Source: Bacteroidota bacterium
Lineage (GTDB): Bacteria; Bacteroidota; Bacteroidia; AKYH767-A; 2013-40CM-41-45
Assembly: GCA_031417555.1 (NCBI GenBank)
Contig: JANOVV010000046.1
Location: forward strand, 6,725 to 70,724
DNA length: 64,000 nt
Direction: 5' to 3'
Position 1 is the first letter of the stretch. Each line of letters begins with the position of its first letter. The notes under the pieces were generated by a model that was given only the letters and a program-made list of their open reading frames with translations, was not told the DNA's origin and searched no databases. Shown here piece by piece: positions 6,673 to 64,000 of this stretch. The position numbers and the translations under genes are program-made.

Positions 6673-6696
6673 AAAAATAAAAATTTAAATTTGGAA

Positions 6697-6729
6697 CAGG
6701 CCTCAACTTTTGTTGAGGCCTGTTTTTTT
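6697..6729 (+). terminator. rho-independent terminator after the kinase gene
   Basis: A perfect 11-bp stem, caggcctcaac (6697-6707) / gttgaggcctg (6712-6722), with a tttt loop, followed by T7 (6723-6729). Confidence 0.75.
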
Positions 6730-6746: not shown

Positions 6747-7140
6747 CTCCCGCTGGGCGAAGTCTTAAGCGCTCTTTCCAAATTTTATTCAAAGACGTAT
6801 GACAACTTTAAGCGCGTGACTTCGTCCACGATGCGGCTTTGGAAATTGAAAAATTTATTTACTAGAAACTCACAAGTTCCGCCAGCTGGCGGATGACAAT
6901 GTGTATTTTGATTAAGAGTGCAGTCCACTTGCCGCCAAACAAAAGTTGTTACAAGAAACTAATTTTAATTGGCGGCAAGTGGACTGCACATGAATACATG
7001 ACATGGATGTCAACTTTAAAGGAACATATGAGATTTATAAGCCTCGCATGCCGCATCTTGGACGAAGTCACGCGCTCGAGGGGGGGTTACGATTTTGAAT
7101 AATTTGCGAGGCGAGCGCTTAAGACTTCGCCCAGCGGGAG
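6747..7140 (+). repeat. 394-nt structured repeat, copy 1 (nested long inverted repeats; MITE-like element or structured RNA gene)
   Basis: About 94% identical to 8769-9162 in the same orientation. Nested perfect or near-perfect helices: 6747-6774/7113-7140 (28 bp), 6812-6837/7050-7075 (26 bp, 1 mismatch), 6879-6892 (hairpin) and 6918-6938/6969-6989 (21 bp). Confidence 0.9.
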
Positions 7141-7237
7141 GCAATTCACTGTTCCATCTCAAACAATACTCTGATGTTTCAGGGTTTACACAAGATGACG
7201 GTAGGATTTGAATGTACTTAGACGGGGAAATAATTCC

Positions 7238-7245
7238 TAACTTTG
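7238..7245 (+). promoter_or_regulatory. possible Bacteroidota -7 promoter box (TAacTTTG) for the cyclase gene
   Basis: taactttg lies 31 nt upstream of ATG 7277 and matches the TAnnTTTG consensus. No well-spaced -33 TTTG is present; the nearest is 27 nt upstream. Confidence 0.3.
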
Positions 7246-7276
7246 ACGAGATTAAAAAGTAAATAAAGACAACAGC

Positions 7277-8617
7277 ATGGAAACAATGTTACTGGTAGGA
7301 ATGATTATTCTTCTGCCGGTACTTTTTTTTACCGGTTATATTACCGGAAAAAGAGCTACAAATGATTCGGTAAAAACGAAGAGAATTGAAGAATACCCGT
7401 TCTATCCGTTTATTACAAATGAACTTGGAATTGTGGAATTCAGCCAGCCGTTATTTAATGAAGCGGTGAGATACCTGATCAAAAACAAAAATCCTTTTGC
7501 GACAAAACAATTGATCATAATAGGCGAACAAAATATTGTTCGGGATATTCTTGCAACCGGTGATCTGAATAAATATTTATTGATTTATAATAAATACGAT
7601 GGACAAAAATTACTTTCGGAAAATGATCAGTTCATGGAAAATTACAAACGGATTGTAACGCTGTTCGGAAAGTCATTCAAAGGAACAGGAATGGAAATTT
7701 TGCTTCATAATCTTGTAAATCCGACAAAGTCTGTCATTGCAATTGAAAACGGAGAAGTGACCGGAAGAAAAATAGAAAATGGCACCACTAATTTATTGCT
7801 CGACTTAAAAACCCGAAAGCAGCAGAACCAGGATAAACTCAATTATAAACTTCAGATTGGTTCACGATTGTTTAAGTGCACTACCATTCCGATTTTCAGA
7901 AGAGATTACGGTTTGGTTGGCGCCATTTGCATTAATGTGGATGCAAATTTTATTAAGAATGAAGTAATGAACAAAAAAGAAAAGCTCGAAGCATTCATTG
8001 AAAATATTGTGAAAACAGATTTTGAACTTAATGAAAATATTCTTTCAAAAGAAGAATTCAAAGCTGCAATAGCAGGAAAGAAACATTATGCGGATGATGT
8101 GTTACTTTCAACTCCGGCTTTCAACAGGAATAACCGGCTGATGGCAATTTTGTTTTCTGATATCGTGAATTATTCATCGCTCATGGGAAAAGATGAAAGG
8201 CATGCATTAAATATTCTGGATGAAAACAGGAAAAATCATCAGAGCGGCATGTTAAAATATAACGGAGCGATTCTTAAAGAAATCGGTGATGGAATATTAG
8301 CCAGCTTCAATTCGGTATCGGATGCAGTTCAATGCGGAATTAATATTCAGAAAAAAATTAAAGAGACTGGTAATTACAAGTTAAGAATCGGTATACACCT
8401 TGGCGAAGTTTTCACGGCCAACAATGATGTATTCGGGGATGGAGTAAATATTGCTTCTAGGATACAGTCGGTAGCTTTACCTGGCACTGTTTCGATTTCG
8501 GAAGTAGTTTATAATAATATTAAAAATAAAATAGAAGAAGAAGTGGTATTTGCCGGAGAAAAACAATTAAAAAATATTAACATTCCGGTTAAAATTTATC
8601 AGGTGAATATTATCTGA
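7277..8617 (+). CDS. membrane-anchored YheO-like PAS domain / class III adenylate-guanylate cyclase fusion protein
   Basis: There is an N-terminal TM helix (LLVGMIILLPVLFFTGYI). The central LLHNLVNPTKSVIAIENGEVTGRKIENGTTNLLLDL resembles the YheO-like PAS domain. The C-terminal cyclase motifs are ILFSDIVNYSSL, KEIGDGILASF, IGIHLGEV and GDGVNIASRIQS. Confidence 0.8.
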   Translation: METMLLVGMIILLPVLFFTGYITGKRATNDSVKTKRIEEYPFYPFITNELGIVEFSQPLFNEAVRYLIKNKNPFATKQLIIIGEQNIVRDILATGDLNKYLLIYNKYDGQKLLSENDQFMENYKRIVTLFGKSFKGTGMEILLHNLVNPTKSVIAIENGEVTGRKIENGTTNLLLDLKTRKQQNQDKLNYKLQIGSRLFKCTTIPIFRRDYGLVGAICINVDANFIKNEVMNKKEKLEAFIENIVKTDFELNENILSKEEFKAAIAGKKHYADDVLLSTPAFNRNNRLMAILFSDIVNYSSLMGKDERHALNILDENRKNHQSGMLKYNGAILKEIGDGILASFNSVSDAVQCGINIQKKIKETGNYKLRIGIHLGEVFTANNDVFGDGVNIASRIQSVALPGTVSISEVVYNNIKNKIEEEVVFAGEKQLKNINIPVKIYQVNII

Positions 8618-8768
8618 AATATCGATCATCCTCAGTTTTGTTTGAGTTTAGTAAATTGCATGCAGAAGCTAATTAACTATGGCGCTTGTTTTATATGCAC
8701 GAAAATAAAGATTGCCATACAAAAAAAACATTAAATAATTAAAAGTGCAGTGTCAGCACGATAATAAC

Positions 8769-9162
8769 CTCCCGCTGGGCGAAGTCTTAAGCGCTCTTTC
8801 CAAATTTTATTTAAAGACGTATGCCAACCATATGCGCGTGACTTCGTCCACGATGCGGCTTAGGAAATTGAAAAATTTATTTACTAGAAACTCACAAGTT
8901 CCGCCAGCAGGCGGATGACAATGTGTATTTTGATTACGTGTGCAGTCCACTTGCCGCCAAACAAAAGTTGTTAGAAGAAACTAATTTTAATTGGCGGCAA
9001 GTGGACTGCACATGAATACATGACATGGATGTCAACCTTAAAGGAACTTATCAGTTTTATTAGCCTCGCATGCCGCATCGTGGACGAAGTCATGCGCTCG
9101 AGGGGGGGCTTACGATTTTGAATAATTTGTGAGGCGAGTGTTTAAGACTTCGACCAGCGGGA
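8769..9162 (+). repeat. 394-nt structured repeat, copy 2
   Basis: Direct repeat of 6747-7140 with about 23 differences including one 1-nt indel. The same nested helices are retained. Confidence 0.9.
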
Positions 9163-9263: not shown

Positions 9264-9755
9264 TCAATTCTTAAATCCAATCTTTTTTCTTGGCGGATTA
9301 GAGGGTTTCATAAGTTTCCGGATTGCTTGAAACAACACTTGTATTTCCTTGTCATGTTTGTCAAATTTATTTTCGAGTAATTCAAACTTTGCAGCAAGTT
9401 CCTTATGCGTTGAAATTATTTCACGGAGTTTTACAAACGCTCTTACAACCTGAATGCTTGCCTGAACAGCCACAGAACTATTAAGCATGCTGGCTAACAT
9501 TACTGCTCCGTGTTCGGTAAAAACGTATGGTAGATATTTTGCACCCCTGTGTTTTCTGGAACTCATCACAATTTGTGATGAGTTAATATCGGTATTTGTT
9601 GAATTCCTCACAAATTGTGATCTTAAAGTTTCAAACTCTCTTTCATTAAGTTGAAACATGAAATCCTCCGGAAACCTTTCAATGTTTCTCTTAACCGCCT
9701 GATTTAATACCCGGGTTTCTACCCTGTATATTTCTGCAAGGTCAGAATCAGTCAT
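9264..9755 (-). CDS. ORF6N (KilA-N-like DNA-binding) domain protein. The N-terminus is disrupted by an 8-bp tandem duplication, so it is a possible pseudogene.
   Basis: DLAEIYRVETRVLNQAVKRNIERFPEDFMFQL is the ORF6N signature. The conserved IENKIYFIRGHKV segment lies upstream of the first ATG, in frame but behind a stop codon. Confidence 0.7.
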   Translation of the reverse strand: MTDSDLAEIYRVETRVLNQAVKRNIERFPEDFMFQLNEREFETLRSQFVRNSTNTDINSSQIVMSSRKHRGAKYLPYVFTEHGAVMLASMLNSSVAVQASIQVVRAFVKLREIISTHKELAAKFELLENKFDKHDKEIQVLFQAIRKLMKPSNPPRKKIGFKN

Positions 9756-59371: not shown

Positions 59372-59993
59372 GTTTTTTTGAAGAAATTATTTTCGATTTT
59401 TAAAATTCTTCGGAAATAAATCATTTTTATTCCTTTTTATTCTAATTTTTCTTATAAAATATTGTTTTTTTTCAGTAAATTTTGAATAGAAATTAAATTA
59501 TTGAATAGGGAATTTGTATTATTAAGAATCATTATTACATTTACTAAACAAATTCGAATTTAAAAAATTTGTCGAATTAAAACTGTTTCAGTTTTATTGT
59601 AATTTTTTCAAAAATATATACTATGCTTTTTTGCATAGTCATCATAAAAAAATAAGCCATGGATACGGTAGTTTCGGCATCATATTCATTTTTGTATTTT
59701 ATTTCTCTGCCTAAGTTAGCAAATTCAAATGCAACAGATAGAGTAGGTCTTTCTAAGGACTCCTCTAATAAAATCTCAAACTTTAATTCTAAATAAATAT
59801 TCTCTTCGAATGTTGACTGTATTAAAAATTTATTTGAATTTGAGCTTGACTGTATTGATTCTGCTTTTTAGTTAATAGAAGATATTTAGGATTTTAATTT
59901 TGATGGAGCTATTTTCTAAGCTAAAGAGTTAGTATTAGTTGAGAATATTTTTTTTATTAATTGAAAAATTAAATCATTTAATCTATTGCAAAC

Positions 59994-62900
59994 ATGAAAA
60001 CTTGTAAACCATTCAACAGTTTTTTAAAAAGTATTCTTTTTTGTTTTTTACTTTTAAATTTAGTTGCTAGTAAAGCACAACTATCAGGAACTTATCACAT
60101 TCCTTCTGATTATTCTACATTGGCAACGGCAATTGCAGATCTAAATTCTCAAGGTGTTTCTGCAGCAGTAACGATAGTTGTTGATGCGAGTAGTCCGCAA
60201 ACTGCCCCAGCCGGTGGTTATGTAATTGGAGGGGCTGGTTCTGCATTGCTTACTTCAACCAGTGCTGTGAATACAGTTACAATTAATGGCGGAGGAAATA
60301 TCGTTACAGCATTTACTCCACAAACAGTTGGAGCATTAAATGATGCTATTTTTAAATTAATAGGCGCCGATTATATAACTCTTACAGAGTTTATCATGAT
60401 TGAGAATTCTTCAAATACCGGGTCTACTGCAGCGGCCTCTCAAATCAGGACTGAATTTGGAGTTGCGCTTTTTTACGTGAGTACTGGAGATGGGGCAAGA
60501 AATAATACGATTAGTAATAATGACATTTCTCTTAGCAGAACGTATCAAAATTCATTTGGTATTTATAGCAGTGTTAGACATACAGACGCTGCACCAACTG
60601 TAGCTGCTGATATTACTGCTGCTTCAGGTTCGAATTCAAACTTACATGTTTATACCAATGCAATACATAACGTAAGTTATGGTGTTGCAAGTATTGGATC
60701 AGCTTCTCTTACTGCCGGACTTATGAACGACGGTACAGATATCGGTGGCAGTTCAGCTGCAACTGGAAATACAATTACAGACTGGGGAAATCCGGGAACA
60801 GCAATTTCTGCTTATGTGAGTATGACAACAACATCTTATCCTTGTGTTTATTCAATAAATGAATTCAATAATAATGTATCATTTAATTCAATGCTAAGTG
60901 CTAACCTTACACTTCCTGGTGCAGGTACATTGTATGGAGTATTTCAAACGTATACAGGTGTAAACGTGGCTCCTCAGCCGACAGGAACTTTTTTTACAAG
61001 AGTTAACAACAATACATTTACTCTTGTAAACTCTCCGATAGCATCTGCAACAGGCGCTATTGAGTGTGTACGTACTCAGAACCTTGGACCAGCTTCCGGT
61101 GCATCAATTTCTATCAGTAATAATACAGTTTCAGCGTGTAAAATTCTTGGAGCTAACGCTACATCAAACTTATTCCGTCCAATTATAAATATTTCTTCAC
61201 CCAATGTTTTAACCATTGATGGAAATATTATAAAAGACAATGAACTTAATACAACTACAGGACAATGTCAGTTGCTTAGAAATTCAAGTGATGTAATTAC
61301 AGATGTTTTTATCAGAAACAATAAATTAGGAATTGCACCATCAGGACCGGGAGTTTGTGTTACATGGACAAGAGCCAGCAGCGCCAATTTTTTCATGTTG
61401 ATTAATGGTCCGGGTGCAATTAATGCACAATCTACCGTTTATACTATTACAGGAAACGAACATACAGGATTTATTCAAGTTAATCATACAGGATTCCTTG
61501 TAGGTGCAAGTATTACTGTTGGTGGATCTGTAAACTATAATTTCAATACGTTTAATCTAAATCTTAAGAATTCATTTATTATTCGATTAATAAGTGAATC
61601 AGGTCAAAAGCCGAACTCAATTGCCAATTATCTGAATAATACAATTTCAATTGCCAACACTTCTGGTGGTGCTGCAATGGCAGAATTTTCTCTTTACCTG
61701 GATGCTTTTGATGTAACATCAAATCAAACTTCAGCATGGAATTTTTCGAACAACAATTGTTCGAATATTTCATTTGACGGAGTTGGTTCCGACTGGATTG
61801 GTGTTTATAGTGTTGCCGGAAATGGTAAGAAAAAAACTGCTTCCAACAATACATTCAATAACATTTCTTGTACAGCAAATGGTATTATTGAAAGCATCAT
61901 TCGTGTTGAAAGCGGATCTTCATTATTTGCAAATACGGTAAGTAATAATACTATTTCAAATATATCAAGTGCAGGTGGAAATATTACCGGTATATTATCT
62001 ACTGATTCAAATCTTACAGTTGTTGGAAATACAATCAGCAATTTGTCAACTTCAGGAGCTGTAGTAGTAGGTATAGATTTAGAAAATGGAACAGATGTTT
62101 TAGTACAGAAAAATAAAATCTGTGGATTAACATCAACCTTCAATGGATCTCCTGTTGTTGTGGCAGGTATTGTAGTAGGTACATTAAACAGTGCTGAAAT
62201 ATCAAATAATACTATTGGCGACTTACATGCAACTACTGCAGCAGGTACTTCAGTTTATGGAATACGTGCCGATACAATTACTACTTCATTAAAAGTGTAT
62301 TATAATACAGTTCATTTGAGTGGTACAAGTACCGGTGCCAATTGGAGTGCAAGCGACTTTGATGTTGCTCGTTCTCCGTATGAATTAAATAATAACATTT
62401 TTGTTAATACGTGTTCTCCAACAGGAACAGGTGTAGCAGCTGCTATCAGTACAACAGACGCTACTCTTGCTAATTTTGCAGTAACATCAGACAGAAATAA
62501 TTATTTTGCTTCAACAATCTTTACCAATGGTACAGGCCCGCTTACATTTGCATCTTTGGCCGCTTATCAGACGGGTGTTTCGCCTCGGGATTTTAATTCC
62601 TTTGCTCAAAACCCTCCATTTATCAGCACAACATGTTCTAATGTAAACTTCCTGCATTTGACAGCCGGAGCTACTACATCTATGGAAAGTAGTGGAGCAC
62701 CAATTGGTGGCATAACAACAGACATTGATGGCCAGGTAAGAAATGCTTCAACACCGGATATTGGTGCTGATGAATTTTCCGGGATTTCTCAACCATTTTG
62801 TACCGGTGTACCAACGTCGGGTTCAATCAATGGAATCGGAAATATATGTTCCGGATCCGGAACAACTTTAACATTAACAGGTGCATCAACAGATATTGGT

Positions 62901-64000
62901 ATTGTTTATCAATGGAATTCCGGAACAAATTCCGGCGGACCATATCCAAACGTTTTAGGAACAGGGACTTTTCAGGCAACAGGACCTTTGACAGTAACTA
63001 CTTATTATAAGGTTACAATAACCTGTACGCGTCCGGGTGGTTCTTCAGTAACAACGGGTGAAAAAGGGGTTTTCCTAATTTCTCTTCCTACAGTAACAGT
63101 TTCTCCCACCTCTGCTTTGATATGTCTTCCAGGTGGATCTCCTGCAGTATTAACTGCAGGCGGGGCTTCAACGTATACTTGGTCACCTTCACAAGGATTA
63201 TCGGCTACTACTGGTTCTGTTGTATCTGCCAATCCCATACTTACTACTTCTTATATTTTAACTGGCACAAACGTAAGCGGCTGCACAGATGATACTACGG
63301 TTATTATTTCTGTAAGTAATACACCAACAAATTTAATTGCAAGTGCAACGCCAACTTTGGTTTGTAACAATGGAACATCCACACTTGATGTTACAGCCGG
63401 ATTAACAATTCCTTCATATGCTTCATTGTATTCCTTAGCAGCATCAAGTGGTACTTTTACTCCTTTAACAGGAGCTGTGCATGTTCCGTCAATTGAAGCC
63501 GATGATGTAGCTGCATCTGTTCCTTTTGGATTTACATTTAGTTATGAAGGAAATTCTTATTCAAATGCATTTGCCAATTCAAATGGATTTTTATCTTTAA
63601 ATAATACCGGTGGCGGACAGAATAATAATTTGGCAACAGGCACAATCCGGCCTGTTATTGCTCCTCTTTGGGATGATTTAAGTGGCATTTCGTCAGCACC
63701 TGATTTAACTAAAGGAATCGCTTCTTATTTAACTACAGGATCCAATGGCTCCCACGTTTTTACTTTTGAATGGTTAAATTGGTATTGGGATTTTTCAGCG
63801 GTCGATTCATCAATATCATTTCAGGTAAAATTATACGAAGCAGATGGTCATATAGAATTTATCTACAGATCAGAGTCCGCAACTCCAACAAGTGCCAGTG
63901 CTTCCGTTGGTTTATCCAGTACATTATCCGGTAACTTTTTATCATTGAGTAATCTTTCTGTTTCTCCAGTTGTAAGTTCTGTTATTGAAACAAATACGAT
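59994..64000 (+). CDS. giant secreted surface protein (5' part) with right-handed beta-helix-like repeats, Cys-containing Ig-like repeats and a NIDO-like segment
   Basis: Hand translation from ATG 59994 (stop TAA 59979 upstream) gives the signal peptide MKTCKPFNSFLKSILFCFLLLNLVASKAQ. The frame then stays open for about 1330 codons rich in N/T/S/G/V. It is missing from the supplied ORF track. An apparent in-frame TGA at 63987 is followed by protein-like sequence in the next frame, so the real 3' end is uncertain. Confidence 0.7.
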   Translation, partial: MKTCKPFNSFLKSILFCFLLLNLVASKAQLSGTYHIPSDYSTLATAIADLNSQGVSAAVTIVVDASSPQTAPAGGYVIGGAGSALLTSTSAVNTVTINGGGNIVTAFTPQTVGALNDAIFKLIGADYITLTEFIMIENSSNTGSTAAASQIRTEFGVALFYVSTGDGARNNTISNNDISLSRTYQNSFGIYSSVRHTDAAPTVAADITAASGSNSNLHVYTNAIHNVSYGVASIGSASLTAGLMNDGTDIGGSSAATGNTITDWGNPGTAISAYVSMTTTSYPCVYSINEFNNNVSFNSMLSANLTLPGAGTLYGVFQTYTGVNVAPQPTGTFFTRVNNNTFTLVNSPIASATGAIECVRTQNLGPASGASISISNNTVSACKILGANATSNLFRPIINISSPNVLTIDGNIIKDNELNTTTGQCQLLRNSSDVITDVFIRNNKLGIAPSGPGVCVTWTRASSANFFMLINGPGAINAQSTVYTITGNEHTGFIQVNHTGFLVGASITVGGSVNYNFNTFNLNLKNSFIIRLISESGQKPNSIANYLNNTISIANTSGGAAMAEFSLYLDAFDVTSNQTSAWNFSNNNCSNISFDGVGSDWIGVYSVAGNGKKKTASNNTFNNISCTANGIIESIIRVESGSSLFANTVSNNTISNISSAGGNITGILSTDSNLTVVGNTISNLSTSGAVVVGIDLENGTDVLVQKNKICGLTSTFNGSPVVVAGIVVGTLNSAEISNNTIGDLHATTAAGTSVYGIRADTITTSLKVYYNTVHLSGTSTGANWSASDFDVARSPYELNNNIFVNTCSPTGTGVAAAISTTDATLANFAVTSDRNNYFASTIFTNGTGPLTFASLAAYQTGVSPRDFNSFAQNPPFISTTCSNVNFLHLTAGATTSMESSGAPIGGITTDIDGQVRNASTPDIGADEFSGISQPFCTGVPTSGSINGIGNICSGSGTTLTLTGASTDIGIVYQWNSGTNSGGPYPNVLGTGTFQATGPLTVTTYYKVTITCTRPGGSSVTTGEKGVFLISLPTVTVSPTSALICLPGGSPAVLTAGGASTYTWSPSQGLSATTGSVVSANPILTTSYILTGTNVSGCTDDTTVIISVSNTPTNLIASATPTLVCNNGTSTLDVTAGLTIPSYASLYSLAASSGTFTPLTGAVHVPSIEADDVAASVPFGFTFSYEGNSYSNAFANSNGFLSLNNTGGGQNNNLATGTIRPVIAPLWDDLSGISSAPDLTKGIASYLTTGSNGSHVFTFEWLNWYWDFSAVDSSISFQVKLYEADGHIEFIYRSESATPTSASASVGLSSTLSGNFLSLSNLSVSPVVSSVIETNT

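Follow-up and report, generated by a model that had tools for sequence, protein, structure and literature searches.

The closest described systems to the repeats analyzed here are the REPINs of Pseudomonas fluorescens SBW25, with their REP-associated tyrosine transposase (RAYT) (Bertels & Rainey, 2011), and the repetitive extragenic palindromes (REPs) and bacterial interspersed mosaic elements (BIMEs) of Escherichia coli, with the transposase TnpA_REP (PDB 4ER8). In these systems hairpin-forming extragenic repeats occur as inverted doublets, those repeats also lie, in inverted orientation, on either side of a single Y1-HUH transposase gene, target-site duplications (TSDs) do not arise, clusters are mosaic, and the repeats serve as targets for insertion sequences (IS) of the IS110 family. 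To our knowledge, REP/REPIN-RAYT systems have been well studied in Proteobacteria, and from Bacteroidota only 'atypical secondary structures' beside RAYT genes are known. All of these traits have a counterpart in the repeat family that includes a pair of 394-nt direct repeats from a Bacteroidota bacterium (GenBank assembly GCA_031417555.1, contig JANOVV010000046.1, positions 6,725 to 70,724 of the forward strand). This whole 64,000-nt stretch is called the window, and positions are counted from its first letter. The repeats probably represent an unusually large REPIN-like doublet of REP-like modules, belonging to a RAYT-associated Bacteroidota family and lying between genes of a hypervariable island. 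Both the module family and the link of its modules to RAYT genes on related contigs are shown here.

The two copies (6747-7140 and 8769-9162) shared 94.4% identity across 394 columns, with one indel of 1 nt between them (MAFFT, blastn and repeat search; E = 1e-176). This agrees with the first-pass annotation of the window, which had been made from the letters without database searches and had described ~394-nt direct repeats of ~94% identity with a single 1-nt indel. The only gene enclosed by the copies lies at 7277-8617 and encodes a transmembrane (TM)/YheO-PAS/class III cyclase protein; the unique spacers on its two sides measure 136 nt (7141-7276) and 151 nt (8618-8768), also as previously described. 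Identity drops to background directly beyond CTCCCGCTGG...CCAGCGGGA at all four ends of the two copies (MAFFT), and the repeats are therefore discrete units. An arbitrary segmental duplication was ruled out as their source, as identity ends exactly at the terminal inverted repeats. No TSD was visible at the flanks of either copy (...TTTCAAA-element-GCAATTC for copy 1, ...ATAATAAC-element-TTTAAGA for copy 2), and none had been found previously. Single-strand transposition by Y1-HUH enzymes, as in IS200/IS605 and TnpA_REP, is not expected to produce TSDs, and their absence is therefore expected.

The palindromy of each copy had gone unrecorded in the first-pass annotation. Each repeat is a long near-palindrome, 68% self-complementary over its full length (blastn), with 27-nt terminal inverted repeats (TCCCGCTGGGCGAAGTCTTAAGCGCTC) that are perfect in copy 1, a second pair of inverted arms nested within these, and a central 33-bp hairpin. 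Each arm corresponds to a REP-like module made of boxA (GCTGGGCGAAGTCTTAAGCGC), a 39-nt variable spacer, boxB (GCGCGTGACTTCGTCC) and a tail extending to about position 119 of the element. Both copies are organized as A+B+ ... B-A-, an inverted doublet of modules. The parts of the two putative REPIN-like elements are as follows.

6747-7140, no strand: REPIN-like element copy 1, 394 nt, with left REP module, centre and inverted right REP module (repeat search, MAFFT, blastn, folding).
6747-6865, + strand: left REP-like module of copy 1, with boxA at 6752-6772, 39-nt spacer, boxB at 6812-6827 and a tail to position 119 (motif scan; nhmmer E = 7e-25).
6918-6989, no strand: central 33-bp hairpin of copy 1 (inverted repeat, 88% complementary).
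7048-7140, - strand: right REP-like module of copy 1, inverted, with boxB at 7060-7075 and boxA at 7115-7135 (motif scan, nhmmer).
8769-9162, no strand: REPIN-like element copy 2, 394 nt, a mosaic whose left part resembles copy 2 and whose right part resembles copy 3 of contig L006, described below (MAFFT, blastn, diagnostic sites).
8769-8887, + strand: left REP-like module of copy 2, with boxA at 8774-8794 and boxB at 8834-8849; absent in contigs L007-L009 (motif scan, nhmmer).
8910-8936, no strand: crossover interval between ancestral copies 2 and 3 (diagnostic sites switch after 8909 and before 8937).
8939-9012, no strand: central hairpin of copy 2 (inverted repeat).
9070-9162, - strand: right REP-like module of copy 2, in inverted orientation and with slight decay, boxB at 9082-9097 (1 mismatch) and boxA at 9138-9158 (3 mismatches) (motif scan, nhmmer).

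The first-pass annotation had suggested a search for copies of the 394-nt unit in related genomes. A scan with the terminal 21-mer over one genome per species gave five loci with modules (L001-L005) in two other Bacteroidota metagenome-assembled genomes (MAGs), and the full 394-nt form nowhere else. At these loci boxA and boxB keep a fixed start-to-start spacing of 60 nt, with spacer sequences that are unrelated, and the modules occur singly, in head-to-tail arrays and in inverted doublets of ~245-280 nt. One doublet of ~277 nt occupies an ordinary intergenic gap in the middle of a 145-kb contig, and modules were found on at least 4 contigs of MAG VAR_35. A common fold was predicted for 26 of 27 distinct modules (the exception being L002_782, which folds otherwise), in which a 10-bp stem (GGGCGAAGTC/GACTTCGTCC) containing one conserved G.T is combined with an internal loop, a second stem of 4 bp (GCGC) and a ~40-nt loop. 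The conserved G.T makes the two strands of the module non-equivalent. Just upstream of the doublet in L002, short repeated motifs (CTGAGCGCAG.CGAAG...) were seen at 700-790, possibly from a different small-repeat family.

Modules in inverted orientation bracket a 184-aa open reading frame (ORF) at L005, the product of which matches the NCBIfam equivalog NF047646 (REP-associated tyrosine transposase) at 87.1 bits (cut-off 80) and Pfam Y1_Tnp at 23.2 (cut-off 23). A homology search gave 52 relatives, several of which are named RayT by their sources. For 4 of the 5 contigs examined (L005, L037, L038 and L039) the RAYT gene is flanked on both sides by inverted modules; the remaining contig, L040, stops at the RAYT gene, so that only the upstream side is visible. 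The proteins are 184-187 aa long and carry T-H-M-H (HUH), WQ and Y[IV]HNNP motifs, and their top PDB match is E. coli TnpA_REP (4ER8), although weak (E = 0.064). Contig L037 comes from sample ERZ27315200, the same sample as the cyclase locus L007, and has two modules upstream and two downstream of its RAYT gene; one of these modules (860-977) matches positions 3-120 of the window element at 82% identity, with spacer and tail covered by the match. RAYT cluster P0010 occurs in a sample in which this locus is also present.

Among described transposase groups, TnpA_REP subclass 2.6 (group 5 of the RAYTs of Bertels et al., 2017) is dominated by Bacteroidetes, has a mean length of 179 aa and a YIH[QN]NP motif, and was described by manual inspection as 'flanked by atypical secondary structures' (Quentin et al., 2018, PMC6006769). 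The present family appears to fit this description in phylum, protein length (184-187 aa vs. a mean of 179), WQ and YIH[QN]NP-type tyrosine motifs, and flanking hairpins that are non-canonical and recur elsewhere in the genome, the two having been compared by description only. The HUH motif of subclass 2.6 is NH[LIV]H, vs. T-H-M-H in the RAYTs found here, and subclass 2.4, with a YIxNNP motif, is an alternative placement. The locus gives a sequence-level description of one Bacteroidota family, comprising boxA, a 39-nt spacer, boxB and doublets of 250-394 nt.

If the repeats are REPIN-like, a RAYT encoded elsewhere in the same genome would bind and cleave the modules as single-stranded hairpins and mobilize the doublets in trans. 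The two copies could be products of RAYT-dependent copying, or of a local duplication inside a RAYT locus (REPtron) that has decayed. A copy that is transcribed may also serve as a 3' hairpin, with no specific tie to the function of the cyclase.

Several observations weigh against the REPIN-like interpretation. No RAYT gene was found in the window by tblastn, and a profile of the module (nhmmer) matched it exactly four times, always inside the two repeat copies; these 4 modules are all at one locus in 64 kb, and a high copy number in the host genome, as in REPINs, is hypothetical for this element. The link between the RAYT contigs and the window locus, putatively of one genome, consists of co-occurrence in one sample and a shared IS. 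The complete 394-nt element with its centre was seen only at this locus, an absence that is weak evidence because the rest of this genome is probably missing from the collections searched. A scan of metagenome contigs with a 21-mer from the central hairpin gave one chance match in an unrelated high-GC coding sequence (L016), scans of viral contigs with boxA and with the centre gave no matches, and a protein search for further copies with a 69-aa spurious ORF inside the element gave no candidates. The modules (~90-120 nt, with a variable loop of ~40 nt) and the element (394 nt, with a 33-bp central hairpin) are large compared with canonical REPs (20-40 nt) and REPINs (~70-110 nt), the host is a member of the Bacteroidota, and the conserved GTAG/GTGG 5' foot of canonical REPs is absent, the foot of the module being YGCT. 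For its oversized modules and non-canonical foot the element is called REPIN-like, or atypical. Finally, it is by motifs only that the RAYT is placed, putatively, in subclass 2.6 and not in 2.4.

To describe strain variation, contigs encoding identical cyclase, dNK or ORF6N proteins were retrieved and compared with the window; the dNK and ORF6N look-ups gave 26 contigs. Searches for exact matches gave no record of the 254-aa dNK ORF or the flavin reductase; the 251-aa dNK start was matched. The arrangement of the window was also found in L010 (MAG GCA_031384345.1), L012 and others. Contig L006 differs in that its complete copy 2 is followed by an additional 3.1 kb with three genes, two of them with Por_Secre_tail domains, and then by a partial third copy (positions 120-393) and ORF6N. 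At sites diagnostic against L006, window copy 2 follows copy 2 as far as 8909 and copy 3 from 8937 onwards, including its right flank, and thus the window and L006 differ by recombination of two direct repeat copies. A crossover within 8910-8936 explains the presence/absence polymorphism of the 3.1-kb segment with its type IX secretion system (T9SS) cargo genes, and deletion in the window lineage is the simpler direction.

Contigs L007-L009 encode the identical cyclase and have an upstream repeat copy that lacks positions 20-119. On these contigs the left module of copy 2 is replaced by another set of Por_Secre_tail genes, 3.7 kb long, the edge of which meets window position 8768 with base precision. 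The slot between the cyclase and ORF6N genes thus holds two different Por_Secre_tail (T9SS-sorted) sets, at 4741-7668 of L006 and 2203-5741 of L007, which have only the last ~430 nt in common. Just left of the partial third copy lie a relic of 15 aa from a RAYT C-terminus and a decayed, compacted module (L006, 7687-7800; L007, 5761-5880; also in L008-L009), with no counterpart in the window; they suggest a former RAYT locus here. Further strains with the identical dNK protein carry other genes at this place: L029, L033 and L034 (including GCA_031431715.1) have a ~90-nt module remnant past the terminator, an unrelated 281-aa gene and no cyclase, and L031 has a helix-turn-helix (HTH) gene in place of the cyclase. 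At 1567-1820 of L032 (JANNAL010000557.1, from GCA_031384345.1, the MAG of L010), the left module of copy 1 is followed head-to-tail by the left module of copy 2, either a chimera or a real arrangement. No empty site with a single joined copy was found among the 26 contigs, most of which break inside a repeat; since most short-read contigs end in this way, a junction with the cyclase deleted could not have been seen. Because of these repeats, short-read assemblies of the organism break at the locus.

An IS110-family element with a 359-aa DEDD transposase interrupts boxA of the copy 1 equivalent in contig L011 (~6764 in the window). The same element lies next to the RAYT gene in L040 (98.3% identity over 1448 nt; L011 1-1349, L040 129-1477), and its site is identical in both, GAAGT[CT]-IS-[CT]TAAGCGC with CT on both sides. 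An IS110-family element inserts site-specifically in boxA. In the copy 1 variant of L007, boxA stops after GAAGTCT, at the IS110 site. Site-specific insertion of such elements into REPs is known, e.g. for ISPpu9 (PMC8450116), and IS621 of E. coli and ISPpu9/ISPpu10 of P. putida are likewise IS110 (DEDD) elements found at one fixed repeat position; the parallel concerns the IS that uses the repeat as a target, not the repeat itself. The locus gives evidence that the doublets drive strain-level gain and loss of accessory genes through recombination, and that an IS110 element uses the repeat as a landing site.

The genes and the terminator next to the repeats are as follows.

6693-6726, + strand: terminator of the dNK gene, a hairpin upstream of copy 1; strain collinearity is lost at or just past it, marking the left edge of the variable island.
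7277-8617, + strand: accessory gene for a predicted membrane-anchored protein with TM segment, YheO-like PAS_6 and class III nucleotidyl cyclase (Guanylate_cyc) domains (Pfam).
9264-9755 (upstream ORF to 9830), - strand: ORF6N gene, the product of which lacks the first ~11 profile positions and starts at position 12.

The terminator ahead of copy 1, the enclosed gene and a frameshifted ORF6N gene downstream had all been noted previously. The terminator-like hairpin was found again. For ORF6N, a 21-codon ORF in another frame just upstream (MKLTEIEKLKIKFISSEDIKL*) resembles the missing N-terminus, which makes a 1-nt frameshift plausible; the same 163-aa ORF6N call occurs on all 13 contigs that carry this exact product. 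The cyclase family is large, with >3800 matches whose identities form a series between 98% and 50%. For homologues of 91%, 79% and 76% identity, three unrelated gene contexts were seen, no REP module was found at any of the four homologue loci (L041-L044), and DNA homology of these loci to the window is limited to 7216-8611, inside the unique spacers. Within this conserved stretch, TAACTTTG at 7238-7245 is a candidate promoter element, matching the Bacteroidetes -7 consensus (TAnnTTTG). Judged by the sequences compared, the cyclase gene is not part of the repeat system, and the repeats are neither its partners nor its carriers. The contig of the 79% homologue (L042; ERZ25039488 contig_35437) has a GC content of 55%, vs. 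36% in the window, which hints at horizontal transfer of the cyclase family between distant hosts.

The first-pass annotation had left two interpretations open, a gene captured between two elements resembling miniature inverted-repeat transposable elements (MITEs) and a pair of structured RNA genes. Of the former, the notion of discrete, non-autonomous elements with terminal inverted repeats was borne out, as was recombination between copies (window copy 2 vs. L006). A captured cyclase, moved whole by a RAYT as repeat-cyclase-repeat, or as a unit bounded by like-oriented left modules in the manner of IS200/IS605 ends, is improbable. The cyclase is accessory, with other genes in its place in strains of identical dNK protein (L029, L031, L033, L034) and differing contexts for its homologues among relatives, and some breakpoints fall exactly at 8768/8769 or 119/120, which looks site-specific rather than homologous. 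However, none of the four homologue loci has a module, their homology stopping at 7216 and 8611, and the identical cyclase is encoded on L007-L009, where the upstream copy is truncated and the left module downstream is missing; moreover, no second genomic site with the composite was found and no RAYT lies nearby. MITE-flanked composites, such as those with integrons or resistance genes in Acinetobacter and integron mobilization units, resemble the locus in having one accessory gene enclosed by a pair of small elements in like orientation, each with terminal inverted repeats. They have TSDs and are moved by DDE transposases, unlike the present repeats, which have no TSD, are tied to a Y1 enzyme and gave no second composite site. 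Breakpoints exact to the base at the element terminus (8768/8769), the module boundary (119/120) and the IS110 site in boxA (L007) hint at a doubtful proposal, in which the dNK-adjacent island would be a decayed REPtron acting as a gene-exchange site, with modules as site-specific and homologous breakpoints, RAYT-mediated or hairpin-directed, for the swapping of one- or few-gene cassettes. If so, the island (cyclase, T9SS-cargo sets, 281-aa gene) would be a Y1-transposase analogue of an integron cassette array. Integron attC-type sites themselves were set aside because of size and because the repeats are associated with Y1/RAYT genes; the window was not searched for an integrase. Rather unlikely, too, is a purely local origin, in which the copies are duplicated flanks of a decayed RAYT locus, multiplied by unequal recombination and no longer mobile. 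The 120-394 unit is known from this locus only, with 2 copies in the window, 3 in L006 and 2 in L007, a RAYT 3'-end relic and a decayed module stand beside copy 3 in L006 and L007, recombination between copies is documented, and scans for the element centre gave no other site, although this last absence is weak given the collections searched. Against it, both copies end sharply at terminal inverted repeats, and the left terminus of copy 2 is the exact divergence point of L007, the behaviour of a discrete element.

A classical MITE, i.e. a deletion derivative of a DDE-type IS mobilized via its terminal inverted repeats, would share the perfect 27-nt termini, the small size and the lack of coding capacity of the repeats. 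It is very improbable: no TSD is present at either copy, the ends are the boxA/boxB hairpin modules that flank Y1 (RAYT) genes, and these terminal repeats were not seen on any IS, the IS110 element, the one IS that was found, being inserted into the repeat and having unrelated ends. The element is thus of the REP/REPIN-RAYT (Y1/HUH) kind rather than the DDE kind. The earlier statement that the window has no transposase held for RAYTs, other types having been checked only in part. Two paralogous structured RNA genes, or cis-regulatory RNAs acting with the cyclase, are the kind of explanation suggested by the very stable predicted fold of copy 1 (-205 kcal/mol, z about -17) and by 2 of the 3 mismatches in the right arm of copy 2, which could pair as G.U on the + strand. 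Folding of the reverse strand is just as stable (-200 kcal/mol, z again about -17), and such symmetry marks a DNA palindrome rather than a strand-specific RNA. No Rfam family matched at gathering thresholds or at E <= 10, apart from spurious miRNA-hairpin matches on the central stem; in other genomes the modules adjoin transposase genes and unrelated genes at intergenic sites, and the cyclase occurs without modules, as well as with truncated versions in sister strains. Such RNA genes are accordingly the most far-fetched of the explanations weighed. In annotation, these repeats should be read neither as RNA genes nor as a sign of a mobile cyclase cassette.

Elsewhere in the window, the seemingly ORF-free end (59982-64000, + strand) is a single ORF of >1339 aa that runs off the window, and nothing unusual was seen in it.

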